A DNA stretch of 63,880 bases, filler included, from Vannella sp. (Eukaryota), in assembly GCA_023345925.1 (NCBI GenBank). It is 7 parts of 7 records of this genome, joined end to end, with 100 filler letters (N's around TTAATTAATTAA, not from the genome) between each part and the next. Parts side by side here need not be neighbours in the genome. Positions count along the whole stretch, not along the records: positions 48,689 to 58,657 come from JAJQQN010000857.1; 6 more parts are not named here. The stretch is one strand, 5' to 3'. The notes beneath the pieces were generated by a model. That model was not told where the DNA came from. It saw only the letters and a program-made list of their open reading frames with translations, and did not search any database. The stretch's first letter is position 1; each line of letters begins with the position of its first letter. Shown here one piece after another: positions 5,025 through 58,757 of the stretch. Both the position numbers and the translations under genes were made by a program.

Positions 5025-5124
5025 NNNNNNNNNNNNNNNNNNNNNNNNNNNNNNNNNNNNNNNNNNNNTTAATTAATTAANNNNNNNNNNNNNNNNNNNN
5101 NNNNNNNNNNNNNNNNNNNNNNNN
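5025..5124. other. Artificial contig linker (N44-TTAATTAATTAA-N44)
   Basis: Identical 100-nt spacer with stops in all frames; occurs six times in the window. Confidence 0.99.
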
Positions 5125-6334: not shown

Positions 6335-8044
6335 TTATTCTTCAGATAAAAGGAAATCGATGGCTTGGTCTAAGTTATTGCCGCATCTTTCCAATGTTGC
6401 TCTGCAGCGAGATGAAGAGAATCCCAAATTCTCGAGTGCGGCAACGTTTTGCTCCAACAGGTGATCAAAGGGCTTTGGAGGTTCTTCGAACTTTTCATTC
6501 GAAGGTGGAGGTTGGTGATAGCCGTGGGCCTCTCCCCATGAATCCATTGGATAGTATGGATCCTGGGCAGGCTCGTTTTTAGAGAACTCATCGCGCCGAG
6601 GGGAGGGTGAGATATCTTCCGCTGCGAAGTTAATCACAATGGGAGAGAGAGGGAGGATGAGGGTATCGTCTTCAGAAATGATCATGCATTGTTTCCATGA
6701 GAGCTGCCCAGCTGCTGCGGCAGATGCAGGGAACGTGATGCCGACCCTGGCCTGCGCGCCTGGTGCAAGTGGGGAAATCATCGCGTCCAGCCCGATTTCA
6801 GCCCCAACTACCAGTCGAGTACCTTCTGGCCAGGGGACATCTCCAGTATTCATGACAACCCAAGACTTGTTGAACTCTTTGTTGGCTGGCAGCTCCGACT
6901 CATTTGCAGGAGATCCACTCTCCATCTCTTTGCCTTCATAATGTACCACTTGGGCCTCAGGTTGAACTGGTGGCTCCCCGGTCCCAAAGGAGAAAAACGA
7001 GGGTCCTGATTGAGCGGGGGGTTCCTCTTGAATCTCAGGCTGAACTGGTAGCGGCCCGGTCCCAAAGGAGAAAGCCGGTTGAGCAGCGGGGGGTGCAGAA
7101 TCCTGATCGGCTTTGAGGTTGAGAGAGCTGGTATGTTCATCTTCCATTGGTTCTTTCTTCATCTGAATGGGTTTGGAATCAGAAGAGGGCACTGAGGCAT
7201 TGCTCACTTCTATCGCACTCTGGTCTCCAGAAGACAGTTGGTCAGTACCTCTTGAAGCTGACAAATCTGATAGCTGGAAAGGTGAAGAGTGAGGCTCCTG
7301 TGGCTGAGGAGGGACCTGAGATACTGTCCGTGGGTCCTGGATTCCCATTTGCAAGAAAGAAGAGATGTACGCTGATTCAAGAGGAGCAGACCCTTCTCCA
7401 ATGTGTGTCACCGAGGAGCTGTCAGGAATGGAACCGAAATGACTTGGTTCAGGGTGGGGCGAGCCATTGAAGGATCCAGAGTTGGGATACATAGTGCTAG
7501 CGTGTGTCGAACCAGCGAAGGGAGAACCAGGGTAAGCAGTGCTGGGGTAAGGAGAACCAGGATACGCAGTGCTGGGGTAAGGAGAACCAGGATAAGCAGT
7601 GCTGGGGTAAGGAGAACCAGGGTAAGCGGTGCTGGGGTAAGGGGAACCAGGGTTGGTAGTGCCAGGGTGTGTACCAAGATAGGGGTAATCAGAGTAAGTG
7701 GTTACAGGTGGGTACGGTCCAAGAACCGAGCGCGTTACAGACTGGCACATCGTAGAGGCCAAGATGTCGTCGCTGCGCTGTCCAGGTTGGACGACGTAGA
7801 AGCGTGAGTTGGTCAAACGAGTGATTTGATGAAGGTGACTGATAGCCTCCACTAACTCCTGGTCGCAAGAGACAGTCACCAGCTCCTTCTCCTCGTCAAA
7901 GTACTTCAACGAGAAAGCTACCTGCTGAAGCTGAAAGGCGCTCCTCACGCGATCCAGTACATCCTGATAGTGCACTTCATCTGCCTTTAAAGCTATCCTT
8001 CGTACATCATCTCCCCGAGAGACCTTGAGGACGACCCTGGACAT
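6335..8044 (-). CDS. NBR1: NBR1-like selective autophagy receptor (PB1, FW-like Ig domain, UBA)
   Basis: N-terminal PB1 (VVLKVSRGDDVRR...LKYFDEEKELVTVSCDQEL), FNKSWVVMNTGDVPWPEGTRL (NBR1 FW domain) and C-terminal UBA (LENLGF...NNLDQAIDFLL). Intronless. Confidence 0.8.
   Translation of the reverse strand: MSRVVLKVSRGDDVRRIALKADEVHYQDVLDRVRSAFQLQQVAFSLKYFDEEKELVTVSCDQELVEAISHLHQITRLTNSRFYVVQPGQRSDDILASTMCQSVTRSVLGPYPPVTTYSDYPYLGTHPGTTNPGSPYPSTAYPGSPYPSTAYPGSPYPSTAYPGSPYPSTAYPGSPFAGSTHASTMYPNSGSFNGSPHPEPSHFGSIPDSSSVTHIGEGSAPLESAYISSFLQMGIQDPRTVSQVPPQPQEPHSSPFQLSDLSASRGTDQLSSGDQSAIEVSNASVPSSDSKPIQMKKEPMEDEHTSSLNLKADQDSAPPAAQPAFSFGTGPLPVQPEIQEEPPAQSGPSFFSFGTGEPPVQPEAQVVHYEGKEMESGSPANESELPANKEFNKSWVVMNTGDVPWPEGTRLVVGAEIGLDAMISPLAPGAQARVGITFPASAAAAGQLSWKQCMIISEDDTLILPLSPIVINFAAEDISPSPRRDEFSKNEPAQDPYYPMDSWGEAHGYHQPPPSNEKFEEPPKPFDHLLEQNVAALENLGFSSSRCRATLERCGNNLDQAIDFLLSEE
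7521..7650 (-). repeat. 30-bp tandem repeat (~4.3 copies) encoding YPGSPYPSTA
   Basis: Unit ggagaaccagggtaagcagtgctggggtaa is directly visible. Confidence 0.95.
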
Positions 8045-8104
8045 GGGAAGGGAAGAGGAAATGAGTTTTCCAGTTCCCCTCTGTCTGATGCACCCCAGAG
8101 CAAG

Positions 8105-8998
8105 TCAGCTTGTTCGTTTAATGTAAACGACGTAAAGGAACCCCAACGCAATCAAGGAGGAGGTGAAGGCGAGGAGAATGATCGTGTGTCGAAGGCGGCG
8201 GCGTTTGATCGCTTTCATCGTTTGATTGACCTGCGGCATGCTTCCTTTGGGGTTGTTTAGCGAGAGAAATACAAGGATATGAGGAGGTGGTACCTTTGGC
8301 GAGCTCTCGGAGACGAGAGGCTCCGGAAGTGAGGAAGCGACCTTGGCCTTCAAGGGCAGAGCGGATGCGATTGCCATTTCTGCTTCGCAGTGAGATGTGG
8401 GTCTTGATTTAAGCGGTAAAGGTTACTCTATAAAGTCATCTGCTCTTCCTTCTATCATGCCAAGTGACACCTTCTCTTCTACGAGAAGATCCATCTTGTC
8501 ACTCGACTTCTCCTCCGGAGTACTTGCTGAGTGGAGGAGTTGGAGTCTCGCTAGGAGCTCCTCTTCCATCCTTTTCGTCTTTTGGAATAGTGTCTGTTGG
8601 TCACAAAGACGGACTCGATGGGAGTGGACAAGGGAACGATCACGTCCCTCTTCAGGAAGCCCGACCTCCATTTGCGCGATCTTCTGCTCTAACTGAGCAC
8701 AGTGAGTGATCCTCTCCATAGCGTGGATCGCTCACACCTCAGAAAGCATCGTTGAAACCTCTGTGGACAAAGAAGACGACTCAGAGGATGGCGATGACAC
8801 TCTCAAACGTTGCACACTGCCCGAATAGCGTTCCTGTAAGGACTCCAAAGCCGCCTCCATCTTCCTCGCCACGACCCTTGCCTCTGCAAGCTCCCCTCCC
8901 GTCAAAGGGACCACAGCTGGGTGGGTGGGGGAGTGAGAGACCTCTGTCGCCCACGGCGCGTCCTCGGTCGAACCAAAGCGTATCCCCTTGCTTCCCAT
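8105..8998 (-). CDS. Golgi Qb-SNARE, Gos1/GOSR1-like (4 exons; alternative start 9016)
   Basis: Spliced product ends ...IRSALEGQGRFLTSGASRLRELAKGSMPQVNQTMKAIKRRRLRHTIIL plus a C-terminal TM anchor, the Gos1/membrin pattern. Confidence 0.7.
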
Positions 8999-9056
8999 CC
9001 CCAGGAACTGCTCCATCAGAGGGGAACTTAGGGGAAGGGATCATTTCGTGCGGGCG

Positions 9057-11513
9057 ATGCGCGGTGGGTGGGACAAGAGCTCTGTCGGAGACTTTGTCAA
9101 TGGACAGTTTGTTGCAGCTCCTCTTGGTGCTCCTCGTGTTGCTCCTGTTGCTCCTGTTGCAGAGGATCTGAGTGAGTGTCTCCCTCCAGGTCTGAAGCTA
9201 CCAGTGAACCGAGCAGGTTCCTCGGTTCCTTCTGGGCTGGTGGACCTTCCTGATTCAGGTCCTTTCCCTATTCCCCGGTCTTCATTTGAGCAAGAGACGT
9301 CTTTCTATCGAAGTGAAGCAGCAGGCCTTCTTCCCCTTGGCTTGTTTGGAAGTCCGCAATCTTCCCCCTCTCTCTTTGGTCCCCCTCAAGCGGGCCCAAC
9401 GCCCCCCTTCGGAGCTTCCACAAGAGTGTTCAATGTAAGTGACCTTGAGAATCGGTTGACAGCCGAGTCTGCCAACCCTGGAGGGAGCTTCTTCAACCAG
9501 CCAACTGAACCGCCTCCTTTTCGGCAGTTTCTTGGCGTAGAGGCTGCCTATCCCATCTCACAACACCCATATCAGGTCCCTGGTTATGGTAGTGCGAACT
9601 CAACCGATGCAGAAAGTCTCTCTCATATGCTGGAGCGCGCACGTCTCCAGGATCCACCAGGAGGTGCATTCCCAGAGCACCAAGCGGCGGAAAGGCGAGC
9701 TTTTTCAAATGCTCCGCCGCAGCAGAACTTCAGGGAGCCCTTCGCAGGGTTGGGAAGCCCCTCTCCTGCCATTCGCCCTTCCCGCGAGGAGCTCTTCGCA
9801 ATGCAGCAGCAACAACAGCAGCAGCAGCTCCAAGCATTACGTAACATGAGTCCTCAGATGCAAGAGCAGTACATTCGAATGCAGCAGCAGCAGCAACAGG
9901 AGCAACAACGGTTGTATCAGATGCACATGGCGCAACTGAGAGGGATGACGCCGCAGCAGCAACAAGAATATCATACCTTTATGCAGCAACAGCAGAACCA
10001 GAGAATGTCTCAACAGCAACCTCAATTGAGACCATTCCAACCAGACGGAAGGAACTTCAATGAGGTCCAGAGACCTTTTGCAGCCACAGAAGCACCCCAG
10101 GAACCTCCACTTATAGCTAGAAGAGAAGAATCTTGGGCTCACACCCCTCAAACCCAGGAGAATCGGCAAACTCCACAAAGCGAAACCGGCAATGCTCGGC
10201 CCCCAAGACAGAGGCTGGTCGTCACTGATGTTGGCCCAAATGATCCAAAGCTGACTCCAGAGGAAGTTGGATTTATTGTGACGCGCATCTCCGATGAGGA
10301 AATCGAACAGCTGGAGCGGGAAGAGCGGAAACAGGAAGAAATGTCAAAGATCATCCTTCCTCCCCCTCCACCCGATGACAGGAGGACTGGCACTTACCTC
10401 ACTACTCGTTCTAAGCGTATTCTCGGGAAGGTATGAGCTTTCCATTGAATGCAATGCTCCTAGCTTACATCATTTCAGCTGCCTCCCCTTCTTGAGAGAA
10501 AGGAACAAAGGATCAATCAGGCTATCACTTCACTGCTAGAGACTCTGCAACCCCCTTCGGCTGCCAAAGCCAACAGGGAGAATTTGCTGAACAAGATGCA
10601 ACTCATTGTCGACTCCATTTGGCCAGGCAAGGGAGCCAAACTTCATCTGTTTGGTTCAAGTGCGAACGACTTCTGCCTGAAAGGACATGATGTTGATATG
10701 TGCCTCACAGTGGATCCACTTATTGGTGAGAAGGCTGACATCATCACTCTTCTTGCAAACGCATTGCCACCTGACCAAGTGAAAGATGTTAATCCTATCA
10801 TCTTTGCTCGAGTACCTATTCTGAAGTTCAAAGATATCCAAACTAACCTCTCATGCGATATCTGCATCAACAACATACTTGCTCTTCGTAACACGAAGCT
10901 GTTGGCCGACTATTCTGCAATTGATCCACGGCTCCGTATTTTGGTGCTTGTGGTCAAATTTTGGGCTAAGAGGCGCTCAATTAATGAGCCGTTCACTGGC
11001 ACTTTGAGCTCTTATGCGTACGTTCTAATGTTAATTCAGTTCCTGCAAACTCGAAGTCCCCCTATTCTTCCCTGCTTACAAAGAGCCATTGATAGCAACA
11101 CCCCTCAAGTCACCATTCAGGATTTCAATTGCACTTACAATGAGGACATTGCCAGTTTTAAGAACTTTGGAAGGAACAATAGAGACTCACCGGCTAAGCT
11201 CCTAGTGAACTTCTTCCAGCTCTACGGATTCGAGTACGATTACATTCATTCAGTTATCTGCGTGAGAACAGGCGGTTTTGTCTCCAAAGACGCAAAGCAG
11301 TGGATGATCCCTTCCAATCCCCGCGAGTGTTCCTTCTTTGCGCTTGAAGATCCCTTTGACACAACTCATAACTTGGGCCGCGTGGTTCATCGAGTGGGAG
11401 TGGAAACCATCCGCAATGAGTTTGAGCGCGGATACAAGATTCTGGTCAAAACTGGTGATTTGGAGCGAACCACACGGCAGTACACAGAAGAGAACCCAGA
11501 CACTCGATGGTGA
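9057..11513 (+). CDS. Cid1/URT1-type terminal uridylyltransferase (~802 aa) with long disordered polyQ N-terminus; intron 10431-10478
   Basis: LFGSS...DVDMC...CDICINN catalytic aspartates, GTLSSYAYVLM, and LEDPFDTTHNLGR (nucleotide-recognition motif with the His typical of TUTases). Confidence 0.9.
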
Positions 11514-12858: not shown

Positions 12859-14318
12859 ATGCTATTCCGTGGGGCGACCTTCCGGATTGTCAGGAGATGC
12901 GCTGTTTCCCACGAAGAAACGCTGATGGAACGAACCATCGAATGGGCAACTGGTCTACCTGGAGTAAGCTTTATCGATGAGTTCAATCGTCCGCTGACTG
13001 GCCTCCAGAAAGAAGCTTCCCCAGAAGTCCAGGAAGTCCTTGCCGATGTGCAATCTCCTGTCCACAAGGCTGCTCTTGTGGCCATCTGCAAACACATACA
13101 GGTAAAGCTTGCCTCAAGCCCACTGTGAATCAGGCTGAGATCCTACAGAAGAGGACCTATCTCATCAGGAGGAAGGACTTTCTCCTCTTTGCAGGGGGTC
13201 CAATGTTATTGGAGCCGTATGGGTCTCTACAGAAGCTCCTTCAGCAGAACACAGATCTACTTAGCACTCTCAATACCAATGCTCCTCGCAACTACTGGAA
13301 GGATCAGTCCCACCAGCGCGCATTCTTGGAGTCTCTGGCGTCTAGCAAGGGACTGTCCGTCCCAGACCAACTAGATCAGATCTCAAGAAACGAAATCGTC
13401 CAGTCTGGCGGTCGTCAGCTCCTGAGGCAGCACCCATCTTTGTACTCGATGTGCAAAGCTCTATATCCGGACTTCCCGTGGACGTTGTCCTCGTTTGCCA
13501 GGACTCCACGGGGATCTTGGGATAGTACATCAAACCAGAAAGAGTTCTTCGACCAGATGATCCAAGAGTTACAGCTTCCTAGTCCCCTCAGCCTCGCCGA
13601 GATCTCTACCACCGAGGTGAAGGAGAGAGGAGGGCGCTCAATCATGGACAAGTACCCCTCCTACTACTCTTTGCTACGAAAACTATATCCAGAGCAAGAT
13701 TGGAGCATTGCTCGCCAGCGAATCCCACGAGGTCATTGGGGGGAAAGCGCGAACGTTGCTGAGTTCGTGGAGGCTGTGCGCCAGACATACGCCATCAAGA
13801 CGAAAGAGGACTGGTATCGAGTATCTCTCAATCAGCTGGGAGAGATAACTGGAGGAGATCGCCTCCTTCGATTATATGGTGGTCTTGGCGCTATCCTCGC
13901 TGAAGTCTATCCTGAAGAGCACTGGGATACCCTTCGCTTCAAGAAGAGAGACAAGCGTGCTGCACAGCGCTTCCTGTTTGTCCAGCTCAGCCGCCTCTTC
14001 CCCGCTTACGAGATTATCGAAGAGCACAACCATGCGGATGCTACACGGCTTTCTGGTCAAACAGTGGAACTGGACGTCTTCATACCCGCTCTTGGCTTAG
14101 CTTTTGAGTATCACGGGGTGCACCACTACAAGGAGACCACAGCTTTCGGTCCCATCGAGCTGTACCTCGAAAGGGATCAAGAAAAGCTGTCTTTGTGTCG
14201 CCAATGTGAAATAGAACTGGTTGTAATACCCTACACTTGGGATGGTAAAATCAGCAGTCTCAGGCAACAGATTCCCGCCCGTTTTTTGGAACAAAGCGAG
14301 GAGAAAGGATTTCATTGA
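12859..14318 (+). CDS. Repeat-array + Vsr/DUF559/RAP-like PD-(D/E)xK nuclease-fold protein (~470 aa), putative organellar presequence; intron 13102-13148
   Basis: N-terminus MLFRGATFRIVRRCAVS. Three ~74-aa repeats (PRxxW...F...GGxxLL...YPxxxW) plus a partial one. C-terminus ELDVFIPALGLAFEYHGVHHY...RDQEKLSLC...IELVVIPYTW. Confidence 0.8.
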
Positions 14319-14471
14319 TAAATAGGACAAACATACACGGTTGGTTGGGTTGGTAGGAGCTTAGCTTCTGTTGGTGGTCTTGGGCTTTCGCATGTCCCAG
14401 ACGAAGGAGAACAGAGGGGAGATCATGGCACGCAGTGGGGGTCGATCAAGTTTTGTATCTCCTTGGACCCC

Positions 14472-14571
14472 NNNNNNNNNNNNNNNNNNNNNNNNNNNNN
14501 NNNNNNNNNNNNNNNTTAATTAATTAANNNNNNNNNNNNNNNNNNNNNNNNNNNNNNNNNNNNNNNNNNNN
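14472..14571. other. Artificial contig linker
   Basis: N44-TTAATTAATTAA-N44. Confidence 0.99.
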
Positions 14572-19310: not shown

Positions 19311-19493
19311 ACCTGTTAAAGTAACATTTGATGTTTGGTGAGATCAATGTCAATTCACAAAATATGATGGTTGACGAATTGACCAACCGATCGAGCAATA
19401 ACATCATTCCTTCTATCCCATAATAGCCTGCATGTTGCCAGGATTGACTACGAGGAGGTATTTTCTGCGGTACTACACTAAATACACTAAAGA

Positions 19494-21266
19494 ATGCGTG
19501 TGAAGAACGAAGAAGATAGGAGCCTGAGTCTTGGAATGCTGTCCTTGCAAAAGGATCTCCCTCTCTTCTCTGGAACACATGTGGCGATGTGCCGTGTCAC
19601 GGCGACTGAGCGGATTGCTTCGGAGGACGTAGCTCCGGTGGGGTTGGTATTGGTGGTGGATGTGAGTTCGAGCATGGAGGGGCAGAAACTGGAAGCGTTG
19701 AAGAACACGATCTTGTTTGTGATCTCTTCTTTGTCATCCAAAGACCTACTGGGGATTGTGGAGTACCACAGCACTGCCAGGACAGCATTGACTCTCACCA
19801 AGATGGACCTCTCCGGAAAGGAAAAGGCGAAATCTGCCGTTCAAGCAATGAGAGCGACTGGACTGACTAATCTCAGCGGAGGGCTTCTGGAAGGCCTCCG
19901 CCTATTCCCTCCTGGTGACCCGATGATGGTCAAATCGCTGATTCTGATGACTGATGGAGAGATCAACGAGGGGATACTGACGTCCTCTGGAATCTCTGCG
20001 ATGGTGGACGCAACTGGAGTGGATTGTGCCATCAATACCTTTGGGTATGGTTGCTCTGTGCCAATGGAGCTTCTGGCTGCCATTGCAAGGCAGAAAGGAG
20101 GGATGTATTATCACATCCAGGATGTTGAGACGATTGCCTCCTCTTTCGCGGACTGCTTGGGAGGGATTCTCTCCATCCGAGGACAAGGACTCTCTTTGAA
20201 AGTTGAGTTGTCCCCAGATGTTGTATTTGGAAGGATCTTGACCGCACGTGAAATGGTGCAAGACGGGTCTTCTCTGAAAATGGCTCTGGGAGACATCCAG
20301 GATGGCGAAGAAAGAGATGTCCTTTTTGAATTCACTCTCAAACACTCGGAGGCCGGGACTCAAGTTGTGGCAAGCGCTACTTTGGAGTACTATGATGTCC
20401 TCACAGAAACGCTAACAACAGTTGGTTGCCGACTCTCGGTCCAACGCCGAGTGGCCGTGGATGACAAGAAAGATCTCCGAGTGGATTCAAGCTTGAATAG
20501 AGTCAGATGCGCTGAGTCTATCTCCGGAGCTTTCAAACTTGCCAGAGTAGGATTGTATGAGAAAGCAAGGGAGCAGCTCTCTCTTGCTATCCAGGCCATT
20601 CAGGCCTCCCCTTCTGGACAAGAAGAACTTTCTCAGTTGCTTGTTGGGCAGCTTGAGGCCGCTTTGGTCGCAACACACAATTCAGATGTGTTCTTCTCAA
20701 ACGGGAAATGCTATCTGGCTGCAACAATTGATATGCTCTATCAGCAACGCTCCAGTCCCGGTTACTCACCTGCTTACCCGCCTACTTACCCAACCAGTTC
20801 CACATCATCCTCGCCCACCAGCCCCTATCCAACTGCCGCAAGCTATTCTCCTTCAATTCACAGTCGTAGTTACTCTCCGCCGAGCCCTTGCTATTCTCCA
20901 TCAAGCCCAAGCTACTCTCCTTCTAGCCCATGCTATTCTCCGTCGAGCCCATGCCATTCTCCTTCGAGCCCAAGTTACTCTCCATCGAGCCCATGCTATT
21001 CTCCTTCGAGCCCAAGTTACTCTCCATCGAGCCCAAGCTATTCTCCTTCGAGCCCAAGCTACTCTCCTTCGAGCCCAAGCTATTCTCCTTCGAGCCCAAG
21101 AGACTCTCCATCGAGCCCAAGTTATTCTCCATTCTATTCCTTCCGCAATCCGGGTGAAGCTGAGAGGTCCCCTCTAGCTGTGAAGGAGCCGCCAAAAATG
21201 TTCCAAACTGCAAAACGCACCCAAATGCTCTCCTTGTTGCAAAGTGCCCAGCGCACCTCCGAGTAA
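19494..21266 (+). CDS. vWA-domain protein with C-terminal RNA-Pol-II-CTD-like heptad array
   Basis: MIDAS motif [18 protein letters not shown]. Twelve tandem YSPSSP(S/C) heptads. Confidence 0.88.
20871..21131 (+). repeat. 21-bp tandem repeat, 12 copies plus a partial, encoding YSPSSPS-type heptads
   Basis: Unit ta(c/t)tctcc(a/t)tcgagccca(agc/agt/tgc) is directly visible. Confidence 0.97.
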
Positions 21267-26154: not shown

Positions 26155-26435
26155 TTAGGCTCGAATGCGGCGAGGATTCCTTCTCGGACGTTCATTGTCT
26201 TCCCTTGCTGGTGTCTGCGCGTAGGTTGTTTGCAGTGCTAGTTGCTGGGGGATGATTTCCTGCCATGCTTGGGCGTTAATCGTGGTTCTAGGAACGGTGT
26301 CCCGGACTTCCTTGATGAGAGCTGCATGCGACACCTTCAGTTTTTCAACCAAGGTTCTACGAAAGGTGTCCACTTCTTTGACGAGAGCTGCGTTCGACAC
26401 CGTCAGTTCTTCAACGCTTCTGGTTAGAGCGGCGT
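26155..26435 (-). CDS. 3' fragment of a protein with ~22-aa helical repeats, truncated by contig edge
   Basis: VSNAALVKEV / VSHAALIKEV duplication; frame open to the gap. Confidence 0.45.
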
Positions 26436-26535
26436 NNNNNNNNNNNNNNNNNNNNNNNNNNNNNNNNNNNNNNNNNNNNTTAATTAATTAANNNNNNNNN
26501 NNNNNNNNNNNNNNNNNNNNNNNNNNNNNNNNNNN
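26436..26535. other. Artificial contig linker
   Basis: N44-TTAATTAATTAA-N44. Confidence 0.99.
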
Positions 26536-34586: not shown

Positions 34587-34763
34587 CAGCCTTCCACTAA
34601 ATGTTGACTCAAAGCGATTTTGTGGACAATTTTGTCTTGTCATTTCTCTCCGGTGATTAGTGATGCTTATTATTGCAATCCTAATTTCGGATTCCGGAGA
34701 CCCGGAATCCTTCGTTTTCAGTTCTAAATCTGGGTTTAGCGGGAGTTTCCGCCAAAATTCTGA

Positions 34764-34863
34764 NNNNNNNNNNNNNNNNNNNNNNNNNNNNNNNNNNNNN
34801 NNNNNNNTTAATTAATTAANNNNNNNNNNNNNNNNNNNNNNNNNNNNNNNNNNNNNNNNNNNN
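34764..34863. other. Artificial contig linker
   Basis: N44-TTAATTAATTAA-N44. Confidence 0.99.
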
Positions 34864-37194: not shown

Positions 37195-40100
37195 TTAAAT
37201 CCAAGCGGCCCATCCCTCGTACATGGAGGCGAGGTTGGAAGAGCTGGTGGCTTCTCTGATGGTTTGGTCGACTTGGTCTTCGACAGAAGCGTGGTGAGCT
37301 CGGAAATCGTTGCCTTGAAGCTTGGATTTGATGCGGCGCAATGCACTGATGGCGTATGTGTTGCGCTCTTGTTGGCAGTGGCCGGGGCTCTCTCCTCCCT
37401 CTTCGTCTCCTGATTGTAAGAGTGGTTCAGTGATCCCTTCCTTCTGGTCTTCCTTCCACTGAGCGAGCTGTTGTGTCGCTGCTTCACCAACATCTCTAAT
37501 CTGCTGGGCAAGTTCCTGTAGCGTTCCCAAAGTTTCCGGCAAATTGACTTTTCGTAAAGTTGGCTTCGCATTTGACTCTGGATGAAGCAAGGTTTTAAAG
37601 AGTGGCTGCCATTCTTCCTCATTGCGTATCATGAGAGCCCTGTACTTGGAATAGAGATTCTTGGTAAGTACATAAATGGCAGAGTCTGAGGCGGTTTCCA
37701 TTTGTCTTAGAATATGTCGGACAAGCGGGATGATGGCTTGGAAATGGGACAGAAAGTGTGAGAGTTGTTGAGAAAGAGAAGTCGCTTTGCCCAAGAAGGA
37801 TTTCGACTTCAGAGCGAGTTGCGTTTCCAGAGATTGCGTTGACGCACTTTGCTGTTGGGCCAGTTTCGTGTGATGAATCAAACCTTCTTTGTTGCTTTGA
37901 TAGGCGGTTCTTCTTTCCTCCAGTTGGATGGAGATATCTTTGATGGACTTGTGATGGGTTTGCAACATGTTTTGGTGATTAGTGAGTGCTGACAGCAGTT
38001 CTGAGGTCTCGTTCCAGATGTCTTTGGACTGATTGGATGAGGAGTTGTGGAGCTCTTCAAATGAGGCGATTCCTTTGCAGATTTTAGTGAGCTTCCGGAC
38101 AGCTTCTGTCGAGGATGTGAAGGCTGCCTGACGGGCGATAATCTGTCCGTGGACGAGAGTGTGATATCCTCCAGATCTTCTTTCCCAAGATACGAGCTCG
38201 TCTGTCTCTCTTTCGTTCTCGGACAAGGAAGAATGTTGCTTCTGAAGGAGCACTTCCTGCGCTTGAAGCTCCGATGAAAGGGAACTCAAGCGGCTTCGTA
38301 TTTTAGAGAGTGGAGTGGTTCCATCATCCAGAAGGCCTTCATGCATCAAGCTGAACTGAACGAGGAACTCTTTTTCTCGTTCAAGCGAAGTTCTGAACAA
38401 GTTCACACGGAGTTCATGATCACGCTCCAAAAATTGACCAGAATAGAGCTCCATGAGAGTATTCCGCAAACCCTCCACAGTTTCACCTTCACTCAAGGAA
38501 GGATTACTCGTATTCAGATTCACACTCTCTTGAGGTGCACTTGAAGGATGAGGTCCGCTGTTAAGCAAATTGCAAGCAGAGGCGAAGATGGGACCAATCA
38601 CGTTTGATTGAATGCAACCCAAATATGCTGAAAGGAGCTTGGTGGCGCTGTTGTATGTGGTCAGAGAACAAGATGAGTCAAGAGATAAAAGCTCGTTCAG
38701 AAGCTGGAGCTTCTGCAGCCCGAAAAGGTCGAGATGGAGGTGCATTACATTCTGAGAGCTTTCTTTTTGGGATAAAGTGGCTGCTTTTGCTAAAGCAGAG
38801 GTCATCAAGTCCAATTGATCCAATAAATACAGAATCTCCTCTTGATTGACGAGCATAGATCGTAGACTCTCACTGGAGTGGAGGATTTGGTGTTGGCAAA
38901 GATCAATTTGGTCTTGCAGAAGGGATGTACGTTGTTGCAAATCCTGTTGCGCAACTTTTCTATCTTCCATCTTCCGTTGTAGATCTTCAATTTCTTCATT
39001 ATCTTCCCAAGAGTGCTCGGTTACTGCATCAAGCTCTTGGATCTTGGCCTGAGTTGAACAAATTTGCTCTGATAGTGTAGAATCATCCTCACTCAGTCCC
39101 TCCAGCTCACATTGAGACTGTTGAAGTTGCTGAAGAGTGCGAGAGCACTCAATAAGAGCAAGTTCTATCTGGTTTCGACCGGAGCAAAGCTCATCTTTCC
39201 GCCCTGCAATTGTCATGATGATCTGTTCGAAGGAGCTCTCCATTTGGTCCAGAACTCCAGCAATTGCGGTGAAGAGTTGCTCCACAGACAGGCTTGTGTC
39301 TGAGGCCAGAACCAAGTCTATTACAGCACGAATTCCACTGACATTTGAAGCAAACCCTTCTGGCCAAGTTGGCTGCTCACAGAATTTGGACGCCTCGCGA
39401 GACAGAACTCCACAAAGAGATGTAGGGTTTACATGTCCTATTCGCGGTCTTACTGAGGAGGGCATCCGCTTGGCACCATTCAGTTCAGCCAAAAGAGACT
39501 CAGTATTTCTGAGACGGGTTGAAAGCATCTGGAATTCGTCTAGTAGCTGATGATTTCGTTGGTCTGAAGTCTCTAATTCTAAATCGAAGTCTTTTCCTGA
39601 TCTTTGACACTTGATAGCGAGATTAAGGGCTTCCTCTGTGTAAGCCACTTCATGGTCGCTCCAATAGGTTGGAGGTAGGGACACTGTTATGTCCTTGTAA
39701 CTTCCTAACAAACTAGTACATTCCAAGACTAGCTCCTGCAACCGAAGCTGGCTTTCTTGGTACAGTTTTAACGCCCCTTGGAATGGCACAATGATATCTG
39801 GTCGTTCAATCGACAAGCTCATCAGTTCTGAAGACTTATCAAAATCATAAGTTGGCTCAGAACGAGCGAGAGTTTCTGATAGCTTCTCAAAGGTGTTTCC
39901 ACGTAAGGAAGAAGTTATTTCCTCAATTGCAAGTCGCTCATCCTTTCTCTTTCTTGATAACTGTTGCAATTTCACTGAGATTTGTTGCTGAGCTGTGGTT
40001 GCCTCGTGAATGAGCCTTTTTGCCTCCTTCTGTTCACTCATAAGCTCAAGTTGCCTTGATTCTTGCTGAGTAATACTCTGCTTGAGCGCACATGCCTGCT

Positions 40101-43100
40101 GGGAGGCTTCTCCAGCTTCTTGGGAAAGTTGCAGTTGTTCTAGCTTAAGTTGAATTACAGAGGAAGCACGGGCAATAAGTTGGTCTAACTCTGGTATAAA
40201 GCCGAGAGAATTAGATAGATTATCTGCAGTACCAGGAGCGCGAGCAGCGAGTAGCTCCAAGTTGGTCTCCAACTCCATTCGTAATTTGGCTTGACTCTCG
40301 ACTTTGTCGAGAGTCCAATCCACCAAAGGGTCGTAGACAAAAGCTTCGAGGAGGGTGAGCAGAATCTCCTTATTTGATCGGAGGACATTCAATGTACTGC
40401 AGCAAGACGCTTGGAAGGTTCCCTTCGTTCCCGTCGGTCCGAACGACTTTGTTATCAGATTAGTTAAACGGTACGGGACTACTTCAGGTATCGCTAGCTT
40501 CAGCCCACGTTCAAAGCAGATGTTGTAGTCGATGTGAATGATCTCTCCACGTGCAAGATCCACAAGTATGTTGTCAAGGTGGCGATCACCAAGCCCGAGG
40601 ATGTACCCGATCATGGACATAACTGCAACAGAGCGTGTGAACGCAAGTTGCTTTCCCCACCAATGATCGGCTGTTGGAGAGGCGCACCAAAGTGCTCTCT
40701 CTAGCAGGTCAGCAGGAGCCTCTTTTTGTAAACTGGTGAAGACTTGTTGGAGGACTTCAGTTGGCCAATGCTTGCGAGTTCTCAAACTCATCTCTGAAAT
40801 GCCAACAGCCTGGAGGGCAGGCTTCATGGCTGCATTAAACTGTTCAATTGGGCGGAGAGGCACTTGTTTGCGGGTTTGCCAGTGTTTGTAAACCTGGAAC
40901 ATCGGCACTGCTCCATCTACCCACTGAATGAATCCGGAACGTCTTCCAGTGGGAATCACAGCGTAAGTCCGAGATGCCAGACCTTTGGTATCTGGTCTAC
41001 TGTGTTGGAAGAGTTGATTTGCTACTGTGAGGCACTGCATTATGCGCTCATCCAAGTGTAGATCCTCCCTACCTTTGAGAAGGTATGGATACTTCCTTCC
41101 ATCGCTTCCGAGCAGCGCCATCTTTTTAGGTTTGGTCTTCGTTGGAAGAATTGATATTTGTGGGCGGAAAGCTTGAACAGTCACTTCGCAGGAAGACAGT
41201 CCAGGCATTCTGATGATAGACCCTTGCATTCGTGCAAGCTTGGGACTGACATCTTGCAAGCGTAGCTGGGTTTTCATGAGTTGGGCGAATTGGTCTTTGA
41301 TTCTGTCTAACGATTGCCAAGCTTTCCAAGGATCTCCGTAGTCAACAGGAGAGCGGAACTGTTCCACAGCACTGAAGAGCTTTGGCTTGAATTCTTTTTG
41401 GAAAGCTGATTCAAACGGAGTCTCAGCGGGTCGGTTCAAAGTTTCCATGTAGTCTGCAAGCTGCAGCAAAAACAGTTTCATCAGAGATTGATACTTTTCC
41501 AAGATCTGGCGGTGATGTTCTTCTTTAGAACCGGAGGAGGAGAGGATTCTCCGATGCTCCTCTCTCATTGTATTACAACGAGCAGGAAGGCGAGAGGCAA
41601 TCTGCTCCAGAAGAATTAGTCCTGTCTCAGGCCAAAGCACTGTGAGTCGTTCAAATTCACACAAAGTAGTTTGAACTTGGTCATAGAGCAAAGGATGAGC
41701 CTTTTGCAGAGAAATTGCCAACTCATGGATGCGATGATGCCTTAAAGTACCAATTTGATACTCCTGTTCTCCAACTAGGATAGGATACATGATCTCATGT
41801 GGCCGATCCACTCCTAGTTTCATGATGAGGCGTTGGACTTCAGCTTGTATCGAAGAATCTGGATGTCCAAGCCGTGAAAACAATTGGGGAATGATACTGT
41901 GCCATACTGCAACTGAGGTTCCCTCAAGGCGATTTGAAAATGAAGATGCCACCTTGGTTCCATGTTTTGTGAGAACTTCAAGGATGCGCAGGGTTGCTGA
42001 GATCGTTTTTACGGCGTTTTGACTCCCTTCTGTTTGAAGAGAGATAAATTGGAAGTAGGAGTGCAATGCCTTCTCATGGAAAGACCAGATGGTAGACTCT
42101 TGGCTTCTTTTCAATTCACAAATAGCTGTGATGGTGTTTTCTGAAAGGTCTGGAAAGTTATTCGCCAAAACCATTGGGGAGCAATTGGGATGTTGCACAG
42201 CATTGAGAAATGTACTCCAATCTGTTGGGGTAGCAATTGCTTTGAGTGCGGATATAAATTTCCTTTGAGCGCGGTGAGCTTGCTTCCAGCACCAATCAGC
42301 CAGTTGAAAATGTACATTGGCAGAGGACGGCAGCGTCATTGTGGCGACGAAGAACGATTGTCCAGAAGCACAATTAGCATAGCTACTTCCGGCTGCAAGC
42401 AGGTCCTCTTTAAGAGGTGAGAATGGAGCTGAGTTATCTTCTTCTAGCCAGTTACTGAGTAAATGCAATGCTTCCACAGCTACTTCTGTGGATTGAGTCA
42501 GGACAGCCTCATCGATAATTAGGTGTTGAAGCTTGGTAAGAGCCACTCCAGGTTCATTCAAACGGATCACTTTACAGCGTTCTAGTTCCACAGATAATGT
42601 AGCAGGGATCATTGCTGCAATGCGTTCGTGCAGTCTCAAATTATTTTGTTGTCGAGCCAATGAAAGGTGAGGAAGTAAGTTATCTCCTGGGTTTCTGACT
42701 GTCCTAAGTAACATATTGCTGCAGCTAGCACCAATTTCGGATGAAAGCGCCACCCTCTCGGGGCCTGACTGGCTTTTTGAACCTGAGGCACATTGAAGAG
42801 CTATTTGGAAGGGAAGAATTTCGTTTGGATTGGAGGAAGTTCGTAATCCGGTTCTGCAAAGCGTCTTCAAATTGACTTGTTTTTCTTCGGAGGGTTTGGC
42901 AAGGTAGGAGAGTGCTTGGACATACACTTCATTTTGGAAGTCTGCTAACGAAAATCTCTTCTCTTGTGAAGCAATGACTGGAGCTGGTAACGAAGACTCG
43001 CTCTCCATATGATACAAGGCAGAAACGTATGAAGACTTATCATGGAGCGCGGTATTAACGCGATTTCGGACCTTCGTTGTGAATTGTTCCAATGAAAGAA

Positions 43101-46100
43101 GATTCCAGTCTCCCAGAGCAGCAGCGCACTCCACAAGACGAGAAGTCACAAAATTCGTTGTTTGATCAGAAAGGGGAGTTTGGCTGCAAAGAATCTGGCG
43201 ATACTGATCAGCTGCTGCTTCTAGCTGCTGATCAGCTTGATTACGGATTGCTTCGATCCAAGGAGCTTCAATTCCAATTGGAAAAGGAGGGGCGAATCGA
43301 TTCAAGAAGTGTTCTACATAACCAATCAAAGCATCACTTTCCTTTGCTATACATAGTGCTAATGCAAGTTGTGACAGGCAGTATTCAGCGTCAACTCTGA
43401 CGGCTGAGGTGGACTTGAAGGTTTGGGAATCAGCTAATTCAGTAAGGCGACACACTGAATGATAGATAATAGATGAAAGGTTGCCACTGACTACAGAAGC
43501 AACAACGGCTGGTTGCCGCATTCTTGCAAACCAATCGACACACACTTTTCGGTTATCCACAAAGAACTTGATCCCACTTGGCAGCGAGGACGCAATAGTA
43601 CCCTCACCAGCAATGAATATTCGCTTTTCCAGTAAATCAACAAACTGGAGGAGGGATTGGAGTGCTTGAGGAGATTCAGGGCAAAGAGATGACACAGAAA
43701 TTGGGGCAGAAGGATACTGAGGCTCCCACTGAGCAACATTCCAAAGCATCTGCTCAATAGCTCCGAGAGTTTTCATGGGGCTACCAAAATGGGTAGTGAG
43801 AAAAGCATTGATGCATAAATTGACAGCTTCCCACGACATCCAGAAACGGGCGATTCGGATATTAATTCCTGAAGCTATTTGCACGACTTGCTGAAGGGCC
43901 TCTGTATCGAGCGAGCTGTCAGCCTCCAGTTGTTTGGAAAGCGAGGATGGCAAACGAGTCAATTCTAAGAACCGATTCAGAAACTCTGATGAAATGGTAC
44001 ACTGGTGAGGAGCTTGGAGAAAACTCATGAACTCTTGGAAGTGAAATCCCTTGAAAGAGCGAGTGGGAGGCATGGTTAAAATCGCAAACAGGGTTGAATC
44101 CATCATAGTGGTAAACCTTTCTGGCGGGGCTAGTTGGAAAGGAAGTGATTCTAGAGCAGTTGCTGCTAGTCCTTGAATCGCTTCCGATGAGTCAGCAAGA
44201 CCAAACCATGCAAGAGCACGGATTGGAGAAAGGAGAATCCCGACATCTTTTGCTGGGGACTTGGTTAGTAGTTTGCATAAAACTATCCAGGCACTTTGGC
44301 GAATTGGGTGATCCACATGACTAAGAAGAGGAGTGACTGCAGGAAGGACACACGAATAGAGGTTATCGATCTTGTGGTCAAGAGAAGCATTGATAGTATC
44401 AAGAGCTAATAGAATAAGTCTTTTGTCATTCACTTTGGTTGTTATGTCCTTGAGAAGCTCAAAGACTCCCTTTACAATCGGATCAATAAGCTGACAAAAA
44501 GAATCACGAATGAACAGGTGTTGAATAGTCACTAAGGTACAATATTGAAGACGAGGGGACCTCATTATTGGCTCGACGTTCACAGGGTGATACTTTTGGA
44601 GGATGACACTCAACAGTTTAGCACTGTTTTTGAGAAAAGTTTCTCCAGTAAGGACCAACATGTCAAAACAGAAAAGCACACGCGATTGTGAGGCAGAAAG
44701 CACTCTGCTTCCTAATTCATTGAAAGTCAGACTGTGCAGAAGAAAATCCATCTCCTCCTCTATCAACAATTTCAAACTTCGGAGAGTGCTACTCTGGGCG
44801 AGAATAGAGTATGTCCCAAGAATAGCAGTGGTTATTCTACCGCTCCTATGATATCTTAAGCGAGCAAATGCTGAATGAGTGTCAAGTAGTCTCTTGAAAG
44901 GAGAGAACTGGGTGAGCATCCCCAGCAGGGAAAGCACAGAATTATTCAGCTCCAGCAAGCTTACTGTCATGTCCTCAGACAGAGAGGATTCAAGCTGTAC
45001 AAGCAAATAGTCTACGCACAGGGGGTAGTGAGCAGCTCGACTGCTCTCACTCATAGTTCGAAAGCAACGAAGTATCCAGTGATTGACTTATATCTGTTAG
45101 GGAAATTGCCGAATAAAACGAGTGGCGTTTACCTTGTGATTGCCTGATATTCGTATGGAGACTAAAGGCGAGGAGGCTGGTCAAAATCTCGCTCATTTGC
45201 TGCTCCATATTGGTAACAATCCCCGGGACAGTGGATCCAATGGTCAAAAAGCATCTGCACATATGAGTCGATAGGTTCTTCCGAGTGGTAGTCATCGTAC
45301 GAAAGAAGTGCTTGATAAATGGATGCTGTTTTTGCTTTAACGCGCTGGTAGGGGAGAAATGTTTCCACAGAGGAGTGCATTTGGATGCAAAAGCTCTGCA
45401 TGAGACCTGATGTATACCTGTCGTTGACTTTCCAAAGAGGAGCGAAGGTAACAAGTGTTTCCTCAATTGCCTGGCAACTTAGCTCCGGTAACTGCTCAGC
45501 TAATCGCCAGCCCAAGAGAGAGTCAACAATTGTCTGTCACGAACTGATGAGAGAAGGTTGTTTTTGTGATCAGGAGAGGCCTACCACGAAGTAAGGCGCG
45601 AATTGGCTGGTGAAGCGCTGATAGATCATCCGGATCACTTGGATGAGGTATGGGAGGCGATCGACAGTTATTGTGGAAGAGAGAGCTCTAAACTGGCGGA
45701 GTATTGAAGCTATTAAATGCCAGGGGAGGGCTACTCGGGCAAACTGTTGGAGAAAGATGAGCGCGAACCGGAATGGGGAGAGGATCTTAGTACCCCAGCT
45801 ATAACTCTCAAGGAAGCTTCTTGATAGCGTTGATCTTGACATCCTCGAAGTAGCCAATCAATCCCATACGAAGGAAGGACAGCACAAACCAAGGAGATGA
45901 TCTCTACCACGTTTTCTTGCTCATGCGGGCTTCTCTCTGTTAAGAGGGCAAAGAGAAGAGTTGAGAGAACTAACCGAGATGATGTTATAATGTCTTGAAG
46001 GGCAGCTAAGGCATCCCCAAGGTCACCCGACATGTTGGCCTCCTTCATTTGATCCAAGATGGGGCGGACGTTGCTCAAAAGCTGGTGAAGAGGACCACCC

Positions 46101-48449: not shown

Positions 48450-48588
48450 TATTTAATAACTTGGCATTTGCGGTGAGTGTTCCCGCATTCCCTGTCTTTC
48501 GTCTTGAGAAAATCCACAAGAGCGAGGGAATAGGCGGCAATCTCATTGACCAATGGAAGGCCCGGATTGGCCAGCATCTGAAATTTGA

Positions 48589-48688
48589 NNNNNNNNNNNN
48601 NNNNNNNNNNNNNNNNNNNNNNNNNNNNNNNNTTAATTAATTAANNNNNNNNNNNNNNNNNNNNNNNNNNNNNNNNNNNNNNNNNNNN
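48589..48688. other. Artificial contig linker
   Basis: N44-TTAATTAATTAA-N44. Confidence 0.99.
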
Positions 48689-51506: not shown

Positions 51507-54496
51507 ATGTTCTCGCGGGGATGCTCGCGCCTTGGGGCTCTCCGATGGCTGCCCTTCGTAAGGAGGGTATCGTTAGTGAATGATGTGGGCATTGTGACAA
51601 GGAGCATGTGCTCCCTCTCGATCTCTCAGCTGGGAGGCCAAGAGCAAGAGCATCGCGTGATTCTGGAGAGGATTTGGAGGGAGAAGGGCGGTGACCAGAG
51701 CTTGCAAGACTGGTGGTACAAGACTCCTCTCGTAGGTCTTCGTCGATGTGGTGCTGGACCTGTTCTACGTCACTACCCGTCGATCAAGGAGTGCCTTTCT
51801 CAAGGTGAGCGGATTCGCCTTGCTATTAGGAGGAATCTCAGCTTGTGTAGTCTATCCTGAGCACGAATGGGATCCCTTTCACTTTACACACAAGCCTAGA
51901 CACTTTTGGGACTCACTGGACAACCAACGAGAGTACATGAAGCGATTGGAAAGTCATTTCCACGTCAAAGAACCGAAAGACTGGCTTTCTGTCAATGTTG
52001 CACACTTCACAAAGGAAGGAGGACTCACCCTCTTCCGAAAACATCCCTCATTTCAAGCTCTCCTCCGGGCAATGTACCCAGAAGAGTCTTGGGATGCCTT
52101 TCAATGTCGGACACCTCGCCGCTATTGGGAAGATAGCGGCAATGTGAGGGCTTTTTTAGAGGGCTTTGCAAAGAAGAAAGGAATGCTGCAGCCCGAAGAC
52201 TGGCTTTCTGTCTCCCACGGAAGCATTAAAGAAGTTCCTGGAGGAAGCGGATTCCTTTCGTGGTACAACTACTCGCTGATAAGGGCTCTGGAGATGGCGT
52301 ATCCCGAAGTGTCTTGGCGTCAAATGAAAGATGAGAAGCTTTCTGTCAAAGCTGCAGCAAAGGAGCCTCTCATGAACGTGGCAGAGATGCGCCAAACTTT
52401 TGATGCCATCGGCAAGGAATTGGGTGTCCAACACCTTGATGACTGGTACAAAGTCTCAGTTTCTGATATTAAGAAGCGCTCCAGCTTCATCCGTAAGTTC
52501 CCGAACAAACTGGAATGCTTCCGGACTGGTGAGTCTCTCCGATGAACCAACCCGTTGGCTCACTTTTGGGAGTGCCACAGTGTATCCAGAGCATAACTGG
52601 AATGCACTTATGTTTGACAGGGTTCCCAATCGGTGTTGGGCGGATCCTTTGGTGCAAAAACAGTTCTTTGAAACTGTCAAAGTGACGCTCGGAATCGAGA
52701 CAGAAGGACTCCTTGCTGTACCAACAAAGGAGTTCTGTCGCTTGGGTGGAACGGGACTGATGAAAGCGAATAAGAGCCGTAAATATGACGTTATTCTGGC
52801 AGGTAAGACAGAGCTAACTGTCAGTTACAGTCACATCTCACCTCCTTGGACAGTTTATCCAGAGCTTAACTCACAAGCTTCAGTGGCTCAGCAAGATCCA
52901 GAATACTGGAAAGATCTGGAACGTACAAAGGGCCTTCTAGAAAGGATTCAAGGGCAATTGAAGATTTCTTCTCCGCAGGATTGGGACAAGGTGTCCATTC
53001 GTTGTTTCACTGAATTGGGAGGTGGACCAATGCTGCGCTCTTTCGGCAGCTTGCGGGCAGTTCTGTCAGCGGGTACGTGCTAATGAATCACTCCGCCTTT
53101 TAACAGGTCAGAATAGTTTACCCCAATCAGGATTGGGCGCATCTTTCGCAGCACGTTCCAAACGGCTACTGGAAGATGCATTCCCACCAGCTCCAGTATT
53201 TCAGAAAAGTAATGGAAAAGGAACACCTTTCATCTCCATTGGAGCTGAAAGACGTTTCCAGGCAGACTCTCTTCGATTTGGGAGGAAGAACTCTCATTAA
53301 CTCTTTCCCTAGCTATTACGACTGTCTCACAACAGGTTGGGCTTCGCGTCACTAACTCCACTGAATCTAACTGGGTCTCAGTGTTTCCAGAAGAGCCTTG
53401 GAATGTTTTCGACTTCCCAAGTCTTCCTCGATCGTTTTGGAAGCAGAAAGAGAATCACAGAAAGTATTTGGACTGGCTTGGTAAGAAGCACAACATCCAA
53501 TCACCACAGGATTGGCAACGCGTTTCCGTGGATGACTTGAAAAAGTCGCGCGGCTACAAATTGCTTCAATTCTATGACAGTTTCTTCAGCGCCTTGCAAA
53601 AGAACTATCCGGAACACCACTGGGATGTTTTTGAGACTCGAAGAAACGTCCCCCGGAACTACTGGAAGGATCACAATAACTGCCGACTCTTTCTCGACCA
53701 ATTTGTGAAAACTCATAACATCTCCACTGCAGAGAACTGGTCGCGCATCAGCAAGGTAGATATCATCAACTTTGGTGGCTCAGGTCTACTTTATCGTACT
53801 GGCTTTATCGCGATGATTCGGGAGTATTATCCGGAGATGAATTGGAAGAACATTGTTATTCCTACCCGACTTCCAGCAGGACACTGGGATGATGATGATA
53901 ACATCCACCAATTCATCAAACAATTTGAAAAAGACTTTCGAGTTAGACGGCCGAGTGACTGGCTCCGTATCTCGTCCAAACAAGTGCGCGACGAAGGCGG
54001 TCAAAGTCTCTTGAAGAAGTTTGGAGGCCTCTTTCATCTGTGCCAGTGGCTACATCCCGAACATGAATGGGATGAAGCTGACTTTAAGAGCCGTGACAAA
54101 CGCTCTGTCCAACGCCTCTTGTTCGTCCAATTGCAAGAGATCTTCGCCGGGCAGGAGCTTGTGGAAGAGTTCATCCATGATGGTCTAACAAGGAGACTGG
54201 GCCGTGCAGTTGAGTTTGATGTGTACCTTCCTGACCACCAAATTGGCATCGAATACCACGGTCGCCATCATTACGACGACATTCCCTCCTTTGGGATGCT
54301 CGAAATGTACCAAACGCGCGACACCGAGAAGATCACCCTCTGCCAAGAGTCCAACATCACACTAGTGGTCATTCCTTTCTGGTGGGACTGCTCCATTGAC
54401 AGTCTCTGTGGCACTTTAGGACCCCTTTTGGCCGACCGATTCCCCCAAACCTTTCCGAGGCCCTTCAATTGTCCCATCAGCCTAGTGCCCCATTAA
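51507..54496 (+). CDS. Ten-repeat array + Vsr/DUF559/RAP-like nuclease-fold protein (~916 aa), putative mitochondrial presequence; exons 51507-51804, 51851-52528, 52581-52802, 52854-53072, 53117-53335, 53382-54496
   Basis: Five GT-AG introns join four ORF-track fragments plus one missed exon into a single frame. C-terminus EFDVYLPDHQIGIEYHGRHHY...RDTEKITLC...ITLVVIPFWW. Confidence 0.85.
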
Positions 54497-56290: not shown

Positions 56291-56785
56291 TTGATGCGCT
56301 CATTGGCATCTGGCAGGTCCGAAACTCATTCTGAATAAACCCCATTTCCAAAACTCGTGTTTGCATGGAGAAAATCCTCGGAGCCAGGCGACCACCTGCG
56401 CAAAGAGGACCTTCACAAAAGGGCCCCATAATTGATGGCGACTGGATGGAATCGTATTTTTATATGTTTTTAGATTTTCAACTTTCTGTGTCCAACTGCA
56501 CAATCGGTCGCTCAGGCTCGTGGATTCTCTCTGAGTGTCCTGATGACCTCCGCCCCTTCAGGATAAGCTTTTGGTCTGATTTCATTTTTTGACTTCTGGG
56601 TGCTCCAAAGTCAAATGAGGAGAGTCATCTCCACTCACTCGTAGTGACTTTTCGGTCGCTGTTCCAGAAGATGCTCTTGGTTCGTCCAATGTGGAGACAT
56701 TCCAGACGGTGAAGCCAACCGAGGTCAGGCAGCAAAAGGATAAACGGGGTCAGAGAAGGAGGTGGAACGAGTTTATCGCGGCTTC

Positions 56786-58629: not shown

Positions 58630-58657
58630 CGAAAGAATGAGCCCGCCAGGCCCTCCA

Positions 58658-58757
58658 NNNNNNNNNNNNNNNNNNNNNNNNNNNNNNNNNNNNNNNNNNN
58701 NTTAATTAATTAANNNNNNNNNNNNNNNNNNNNNNNNNNNNNNNNNNNNNNNNNNNN
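58658..58757. other. Artificial contig linker
   Basis: N44-TTAATTAATTAA-N44. Confidence 0.99.

Follow-up and report, generated by a model that had tools for sequence, protein, structure and literature searches.

Which protein does Vannella sp. encode at positions 51507-54496 of the DNA studied here (assembly GCA_023345925.1), and what might an amoeba use it for? The window, i.e., the whole stretch that was analysed (63,880 nucleotides), consists of seven joined contigs, and the gene in question lies on contig JAJQQN010000857.1. Its product combines an Arg-rich leader, an array of repeats remotely related to DUF4046, and a C-terminal domain with the fold of Vsr and EDxHD nucleases. We find that it belongs to a large, apparently undescribed family of repeat-array proteins with a Vsr/EDxHD-fold domain in amoeboid protists. 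As judged from sequence, this family is likely descended from a mobile homing-endonuclease-like gene and likely targeted to mitochondria.

Gene, family and domain architecture

Removal of five GT-AG introns yields a single frame of 916 amino acids (aa) from the ATG at 51507 to the TAA at 54496 on the plus strand, in agreement with the length that an earlier note on this DNA had claimed for the spliced protein. The introns are 44-52 nt long and all five are in phase 1, each interrupting a Val codon directly ahead of the Y/F-P motif of a repeat, and exons 3-5 (222, 219 and 219 nt) hold one repeat each. Such a shared phase and repeat position across five introns is far beyond chance and, together with the one-repeat exons, supports the splicing model. 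Near-identical contigs span the gene in three DNA runs of one study. The gene is confirmed as real, its splicing being predicted from DNA, and the exon pattern suggests that the array may have grown by duplication of intron-flanked one-repeat exons. It does not lie inside a self-splicing intron, an intein or a mobile site; it stands alone as a nuclear gene, and its five introns are of spliceosomal type.

At E<=1e-3, 1e-10 and 1e-30, the last exon (370 aa) finds 6675, 3084 and 963 clusters built at 50% identity, respectively, and the two weaker tiers will contain nuclease-only and prokaryotic matches. Among 175 fetched family proteins, repeat number varies from 2 to 25 per array. The 30 family proteins that were looked up include 11 paralogs from Cavostelium apophysatum, one protein from Heterolobosea sp. 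BB2 and one from Vannella; these are transcriptome entries and thus show expression of the family. Clusters of the Atlas that lie near a homologue come mostly from Tubulinea and Discosea, with some giant-virus and bacterial members, which points to a probable amoebozoan host of the window. A tree of the last repeat and nuclease domain (163 rows) shows lineage-specific bursts, and the Vannella gene sits in a five-member orthologue group (support 0.98, 47-69% identity) from hosts of differing composition. Lineage-specific bursts alongside an orthologue group are a pattern known for the PPR and OPR families. A metagenome scan returned one unrelated AT-rich repeat locus and no orthologue. The literature searched, to which supplements and most subscription journals did not belong, holds no description of the family and no paper on DUF4046 or PF13255. 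The extent of the family (the 963 clusters), its leaderless viral and prokaryote-like relatives and the family-wide Gln described below had not been foreseen in the earlier note.

A hidden Markov model of the repeat recovers nine full repeats and a partial, degenerate first one. This bears out the ten repeats claimed earlier if the partial unit is included, although the YP-to-YP spacing of 73-77 aa is wider than the 73-75 aa then given; together with the three found in a paralog elsewhere in the window, the claimed total of 13 holds. Identity among the repeats of the gene is 14-36% in pairwise comparisons and 26% within the array. The residues formerly described as an invariant scaffold are indeed conserved columns, but not strictly invariant (W 73-91%, GG 83-88%). 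Family-wide R (134), S (136) and Q (132) columns set the last repeat apart from the inner ones. In a two-repeat model (pLDDT 94.5), each unit comprises one short helix, one long helix and four short helices, and fold matches of this model align one unit at a time. The layout fits beads on a string: each repeat models as a five-helix globular bead, not as the two-helix hairpin of a PPR or TALE solenoid. The repeat is thus unlike PPR, OPR and HPR units, as had been recognized, and the accompanying idea of a TALEN- or PPR-like array reading one base per repeat is unsupported. 

Searched against 48,161 chains, the repeat-only model matched none at Z>=5, which does not show a new fold, and it matched no viral structure at E<=0.001. 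The best rows, below significance (Z<=4.5), are TetR-type helix-turn-helix (HTH), LOTUS and FF domains, and hhalign probabilities of the repeat against TetR (5.8%) and HNH_repeat (PF18780; 3.3%) barely exceed those of 20 column shuffles. An HTH-like core of the modelled repeat is accordingly a lead. A SAM-domain reading, raised by Pfam SAM_TNK rows in two of 22 family members, was unsupported by the listed fold rows. Repeat positions 2-3, 11, 19, 35 and 39 vary over 1140 repeats and are kept among orthologues (3 repeats x 5 orthologues), and two of them, 35 and 39, likewise rank with the most variable positions in seven viral or prokaryote-like arrays. These are candidate specificity positions; they amount to no code.

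PHROG and phage-genome matches of the C-terminal domain are homing, intron-encoded and VSR endonucleases. The AlphaFold model (pLDDT 94) has its best fold match in I-Bth0305I (3r3p; Z 10.6, root-mean-square deviation (rmsd) 2.6, 98 of 98 residues aligned), followed by Vsr (Z 9.7), a DUF559-like protein (9.4) and a Toxoplasma mitoribosome chain (9.0); FASTKD4 also matches (Z 8.3, rmsd 4.2, 106 aligned). The fold assignment made earlier, to the Vsr/DUF559/EDxHD/RAP group, is thereby supported, and the terminal motif on which it had been based is present as D825, E836, H838, H842, R858-D859 and K862. Other routes were uninformative: Foldseek against PDB gave no row at E<=0.001, PDB sequence searches gave nothing useful, and Pfam gave no match in the last exon and chance-level rows only in exon 2 and the paralog. 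RAP or FAST Pfam profiles matched neither this protein (E<=1) nor any of 22 family members (E<=0.1). A homodimer prediction for the end of the last repeat plus the nuclease domain scored 0.06.

The available text of PMC3239194 gives the active site of I-Bth0305I as Glu170, Asp196, Asn208, His213 and Asp222. In a motif alignment to phage VSR-type endonucleases these residues correspond to Q789, D825, H838, H842 and D859, i.e., the first EDxHD glutamate (Glu170; Glu25 in Vsr) is replaced by Gln. This replacement is a family trait: 154 of 159 family domains have Gln here, versus Glu in 73 of 78 viral domains. The same 159 domains retain D (157), E (154), H (155), D (157) and K (154). Judged from these alignments, the active site is under selection but altered, and nuclease activity of the family cannot be assumed because the first Glu is Gln family-wide.

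Relatives and origin of the family

The earlier note had mentioned a loose resemblance of the repeat to DUF4046, which is borne out. The repeat matches a Bacillales DUF4046 protein (L104, itself found independently with PF13255) by BLASTP at E 1e-8, and Atlas structure comparisons of a homologue's repeats with DUF4046 clusters give template modelling (TM) scores of 0.54 and 0.70. A profile-profile match to DUF4046 of 99.9% is partly circular, since 14 of 17 template rows had been found with the family alignment. The protein does not reach the Pfam cut-off for PF13255, and the precomputed PF13255 label of homologue P0011 was not reproduced. On this sequence evidence the repeat is a remote DUF4046 relative. 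The Bacillales locus (L104:205-1806, minus strand) carries five DUF4046-type repeats and a C-terminal PD-(D/E)xK-like motif set; its C-terminus was considered as the same nuclease, being PD-(D/E)xK-like by eye, but matched neither the family profile nor any other profile tried and is not counted as such.

Searches of DPANN genomes found related repeats or nuclease domains in 23 of 301 and in 17 of 201. The loci fetched include repeat-only proteins and fusions in which the repeats follow an N-terminal sigma-70 region 2 (L108, L112, L114, L116, L117 and L118), Pfam-confirmed in the three tested (L108, L112, L116). One DPANN archaeon (L122; G668 contig C30) has at least three adjacent nuclease-less repeat genes whose repeats are 62-75% alike.

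Five viral contigs, four of them distinct, encode leaderless proteins with three to six repeats fused to a nuclease-like domain, among neighbours of giant-virus type (RPB2, RPB5, XPG and SWIB genes). Repeats are 50-70% alike in the four viral arrays; the median within-array value of the amoeba family is 33% (169 arrays). Read directly from the sequences, two of the viral repeat-nucleases have DUF559 above cut-off and Glu, and two have another Vsr-like motif and Gln. Such repeat-bearing viral genes surfaced only with P0120 as query. Viral scans with P0001 and P0009 found nothing. Further scans returned nuclease-only hits: none of the 80 viral matches kept (out of 367) and none of 20 prokaryotic loci had a repeat. 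Three viral-contig nuclease domains (L003, L004 and L044) have Gln at the first EDxHD position and no repeat. One giant-virus contig holds, in a single 1629-codon frame, RPB2 domains and two glycosyltransferase families (L182:32-4918, plus strand), followed by a repeat-nuclease gene split into two frames (L182:4983-6319, plus strand).

The family nuclease is monophyletic relative to viral domains in two FastTree runs (support 0.51 and 0.88, with 3 aberrant rows dropped), and nested inside the family clade are at least two prokaryote-looking proteins that have 8-10 repeats and a Gln-type domain but no leader. The leaderless fusion of repeats and nuclease in giant-virus contigs suggests a mobile-nuclease origin, and descent of the family from a mobile homing-endonuclease-like gene is likely. 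From the free-standing, mobile-type version the amoeba family differs by its leader, introns and diverged repeats.

Possible roles in mitochondria

The Arg-rich, presequence-like leader proposed earlier is borne out across the family by composition and motif. Residues 2-21 contain on average 1.25 Asp/Glu in 155 family proteins versus 2.86 in 108 viral and prokaryotic nuclease and repeat proteins, and none at all in 58 of 155 versus 7 of 108. The motif R-x-[FYL]-[SAC] is found in 34 of 155 family proteins versus 9 of 110 controls. Leaders of at least 20 aa are present in 54 of 146 family proteins and contain 4.1% Asp/Glu versus 13% internally; the motif occurs in 16 of these 54 versus 173 of 2700 internal segments and 10.5% of shuffles. 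The signal is diluted by the many database entries that consist of a single-exon gene call and miss the true start. The MCC-beta gene on the same contig carries a similar leader. Mitochondrial targeting of the family is therefore predicted as likely.

In layout, the protein resembles the RAP organellar RNA factors (human FASTKD1-5, apicomplexan HPR-RAP and algal OPR-RAP), which likewise join a leader, here predicted, to a helical repeat array and a C-terminal Vsr-like domain; one Atlas cluster of a homologue is auto-named 'RAP domain-containing protein'. It differs in its five-helix repeat of about 74 aa as compared to their 34-40-aa hairpins, in the missing Pfam RAP/FAST match, and in a domain that is nearer to phage nucleases in sequence and has an almost intact active-site set. 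The resemblance is likely a convergent assembly. With EDxHD homing endonucleases such as I-Bth0305I and with the Vsr/DUF559 nucleases of phages and giant viruses, the protein shares N-terminal repeated binding modules ahead of a C-terminal catalytic-fold domain and, for I-Bth0305I, the D, H, H and D positions of the motif alignment along with the top fold match. Unlike these, it has Gln for the first Glu, a repeat different from NUMOD, and a nuclear gene with spliceosomal introns, a leader and conserved orthologues. The family is thus neither a RAP/FASTK member nor an EDxHD homing endonuclease in the strict sense. DUF4046 proteins of Bacillota and DPANN archaea share the homologous repeat unit, although the score here stays below Pfam detection. 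With PPR, OPR and HPR proteins and TAL effectors or TALENs, the family has in common a degenerate array of variable length, a fixed scaffold with variable surface positions and an enzyme-like end; its repeat is twice as long and models as a globular five-helix unit with no hairpin.

The reading that we tentatively favour, while granting it slightly less than an even chance, is that of a domesticated mobile nuclease that is now a target-specific RNA maturation factor of mitochondria, convergent with RAP/FASTK proteins. We lean towards RNA because expanded organellar repeat families are mostly RNA factors and because the Vsr fold has a precedent in FASTKD4 and FASTKD5. As the available text of the respective sources describes, the Vsr-like FASTKD4 binds mitochondrial RNA without cutting it (PMC11879112), and FASTKD5 cuts it (PMC12242768). 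A survey of 54 eukaryotes, in its available portion, reports RAP proteins as undetected in Amoebozoa and Excavata (PMC8190603), the groups to which the named family members belong. Briefly, the leader would target the protein to the mitochondrial matrix, where the beads, with an HTH-like core and a basic P-R-x-Y-W arm, might bind one short duplex or structured segment after another, with several bases and not a single one read per repeat. The specialised last repeat could then position the target at the C-terminal domain, which would either cut the RNA, like FASTKD5, or clamp and protect an end, like FASTKD4. Intron-flanked one-repeat exons would allow gain, loss and shuffling of modules, giving rise to lineage-specific paralog bursts and new targets. 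It would be hazardous to have many DNases at full activity in one matrix, and an altered activity would be in line with the Gln swap.

Several observations weigh against this proposal. The closest nuclease relatives are DNA enzymes, and the fusion of sigma-70 region 2 to the repeats in DPANN hints at DNA reading. The nuclease domain is present in 164 and absent from 11 of the 175 family proteins. Repeat charge is only mildly basic (mean +1.5), and the HTH likeness, by Z score and profile probability, is weak. The Gln swap may predate mitochondrial use, because leaderless prokaryote-looking proteins with a Gln-type domain sit inside the family clade. Regarding the leader, the controls were non-eukaryotic N-termini and internal segments rather than cytosolic proteins of the same amoebae, family rows are related and not independent, and the gene's own leader is without a strict cleavage motif.

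Part of this evidence fits a factor that acts on mitochondrial DNA (mtDNA). Its beads would read duplex DNA in the way of a zinc-finger or NUMOD array, and its Gln-type domain would nick or clamp mtDNA, serving like mTERF in starting or stopping transcription, in replication or in recombination. Such a factor would be in keeping with the DNA-nuclease ancestry of the C-terminal domain, the sigma-70 fusions of DPANN, the many weak fold rows of the repeat that are filled by TetR-type DNA-binding domains, and the likeness of the giant-virus versions to free-standing homing endonucleases. However, none of those fold rows reaches significance, RNA-associated LOTUS domains are among them as well, and organellar repeat families with many paralogs are mostly RNA factors; we consider this alternative, the main rival, rather unlikely. 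A more far-reaching proposal, which we regard as unlikely, is that the family constitutes a further, independent class of modular nucleic-acid readers: HTH-like beads of 74 residues, which recognise one fixed short sequence apiece via few code residues (around positions 2-3, 35, 39 and 44-49), are shuffled as single-repeat exons and come with a nuclease of their own, would have been taken by amoebae from mobile genes and expanded for mitochondrial RNA processing, possibly including recognition of insertional editing sites in BB2. According to the available text of PMC5421314, recognition of the 475 insertional editing sites of BB2 is unexplained; a link to this editing, resting on one BB2 family protein, is speculation.

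Two further readings are less likely than either an RNA or an mtDNA factor. Retention of four of the five EDxHD positions family-wide, rapid lineage-specific expansion and the same architecture in giant-virus contigs would suit paralogs that cut foreign or rival DNA in mitochondria (invading introns, plasmids or the other parent's mtDNA), or genes that are still selfish mobile elements. Yet the first Glu is replaced, the gene has spliceosomal introns and sits between ordinary genes, its orthologues persist at 47-69% identity in hosts of very different composition, and its repeats have diverged to 26% as compared to 50-70% in the viral arrays, all of which makes a role in such conflict quite improbable. 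We give the least credit to a structural role without catalysis, as a subunit or assembly factor of the mitoribosome or of some other mitochondrial complex. RAP-fold subunits of the Toxoplasma and Tetrahymena mitoribosomes and of the Polytomella ATP synthase are among the C-terminal fold matches (Z 9.0, 7.5 and 7.2), and a conserved orthologue group exists; but the almost unvarying D, E, H, D and K of 159 diverged domains speak for a ligand or metal site that works, and array lengths ranging from 2 to 25 repeats are easier to reconcile with variable targets than with a fixed complex.

Genomic setting and significance

On its contig (48689-58657), the gene is flanked by a SET-domain gene on one side and an adaptor small-chain gene on the other. 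The six linkers between the contigs of the window (5024-5124, 14471-14571, 26435-26535, 34763-34863, 48588-48688 and 58657-58757) are each two N runs flanking an 11-base all-frame stop spacer; since the window is joined from seven contigs, the gene and its paralog are not neighbours.

Table 1. Features of the repeat-nuclease gene and its paralog, in positions of the window
Feature	Position	Strand	Basis
Gene, six exons	51507-51804, 51851-52528, 52581-52802, 52854-53072, 53117-53335, 53382-54496	+	GT-AG ends, frame restoration, homologues
Predicted mitochondrial presequence, aa 1-36	51507-51614	+	Composition: 5 Arg, no Asp/Glu in aa 2-21
Repeat 1, incomplete and degenerate, aa 47-114, interrupted by intron 1	51645-51894	+	Repeat HMM (hidden Markov model), 27.6 bits
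Nine full DUF4046-related repeats, aa 115-783, 73-77 aa each	51895-54094	+	Repeat HMM; models of last three repeats
Vsr/EDxHD-fold nuclease-like domain, aa 784-893	54095-54424	+	Homing/VSR matches, AlphaFold model, motif alignment
Key residues Q789, D825, E836, H838, H842, D859, K862	54110, 54218, 54251, 54257, 54269, 54320, 54329		
Intron 1, phase 1, before YP motif	51805-51850	+	
Intron 2, phase 1, before YP motif	52529-52580	+	
Intron 3, phase 1, before YP motif	52803-52853	+	
Intron 4, phase 1, before YP motif	53073-53116	+	
Intron 5, phase 1, before FP motif	53336-53381	+	
Paralog, on a different contig, with 3 full repeats (about 13284-13949) and a nuclease domain of the same Gln type	12981-14318	+	

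Elsewhere in the window, a p62/NBR1-like autophagy receptor with PB1, NBR1-type Ig and UBA domains bears short PGSPYPSTAY repeats (6335-8104, minus strand), and a Cid1/TUTase-type nucleotidyltransferase frame follows a Gln/Pro-rich frame with which it probably forms one gene (8937-11513, plus strand). A protein that is von Willebrand A-like by eye ends in about 15 tandem YSPSSPS-like heptads resembling the C-terminal repeat of RNA polymerase II (19491-21266, plus strand). An SMG1-like kinase occupies one open frame of 2630 codons (37195-45087, minus strand) in a genome otherwise rich in short introns. A non-coding stretch at about 56340-56670, matched by many contigs at very high summed depth in three runs, is perhaps a dispersed repeat.

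The family follows the RAP layout (leader, repeats, Vsr-like domain) with a different repeat and may be the convergent RAP substitute of Amoebozoa. It is a case in which the domestication of a mobile nuclease for organelle gene expression can be tested: viral relatives have the complete active site, from which that of the family differs by one residue, Gln for Glu. It also gives a first point of access to the function of DUF4046. Should the beads prove to be modular sequence readers, they would be a new scaffold for engineered RNA or DNA binders, and, if the family indeed forms an independent class of modular readers, a natural, re-programmable reader-cutter scaffold.

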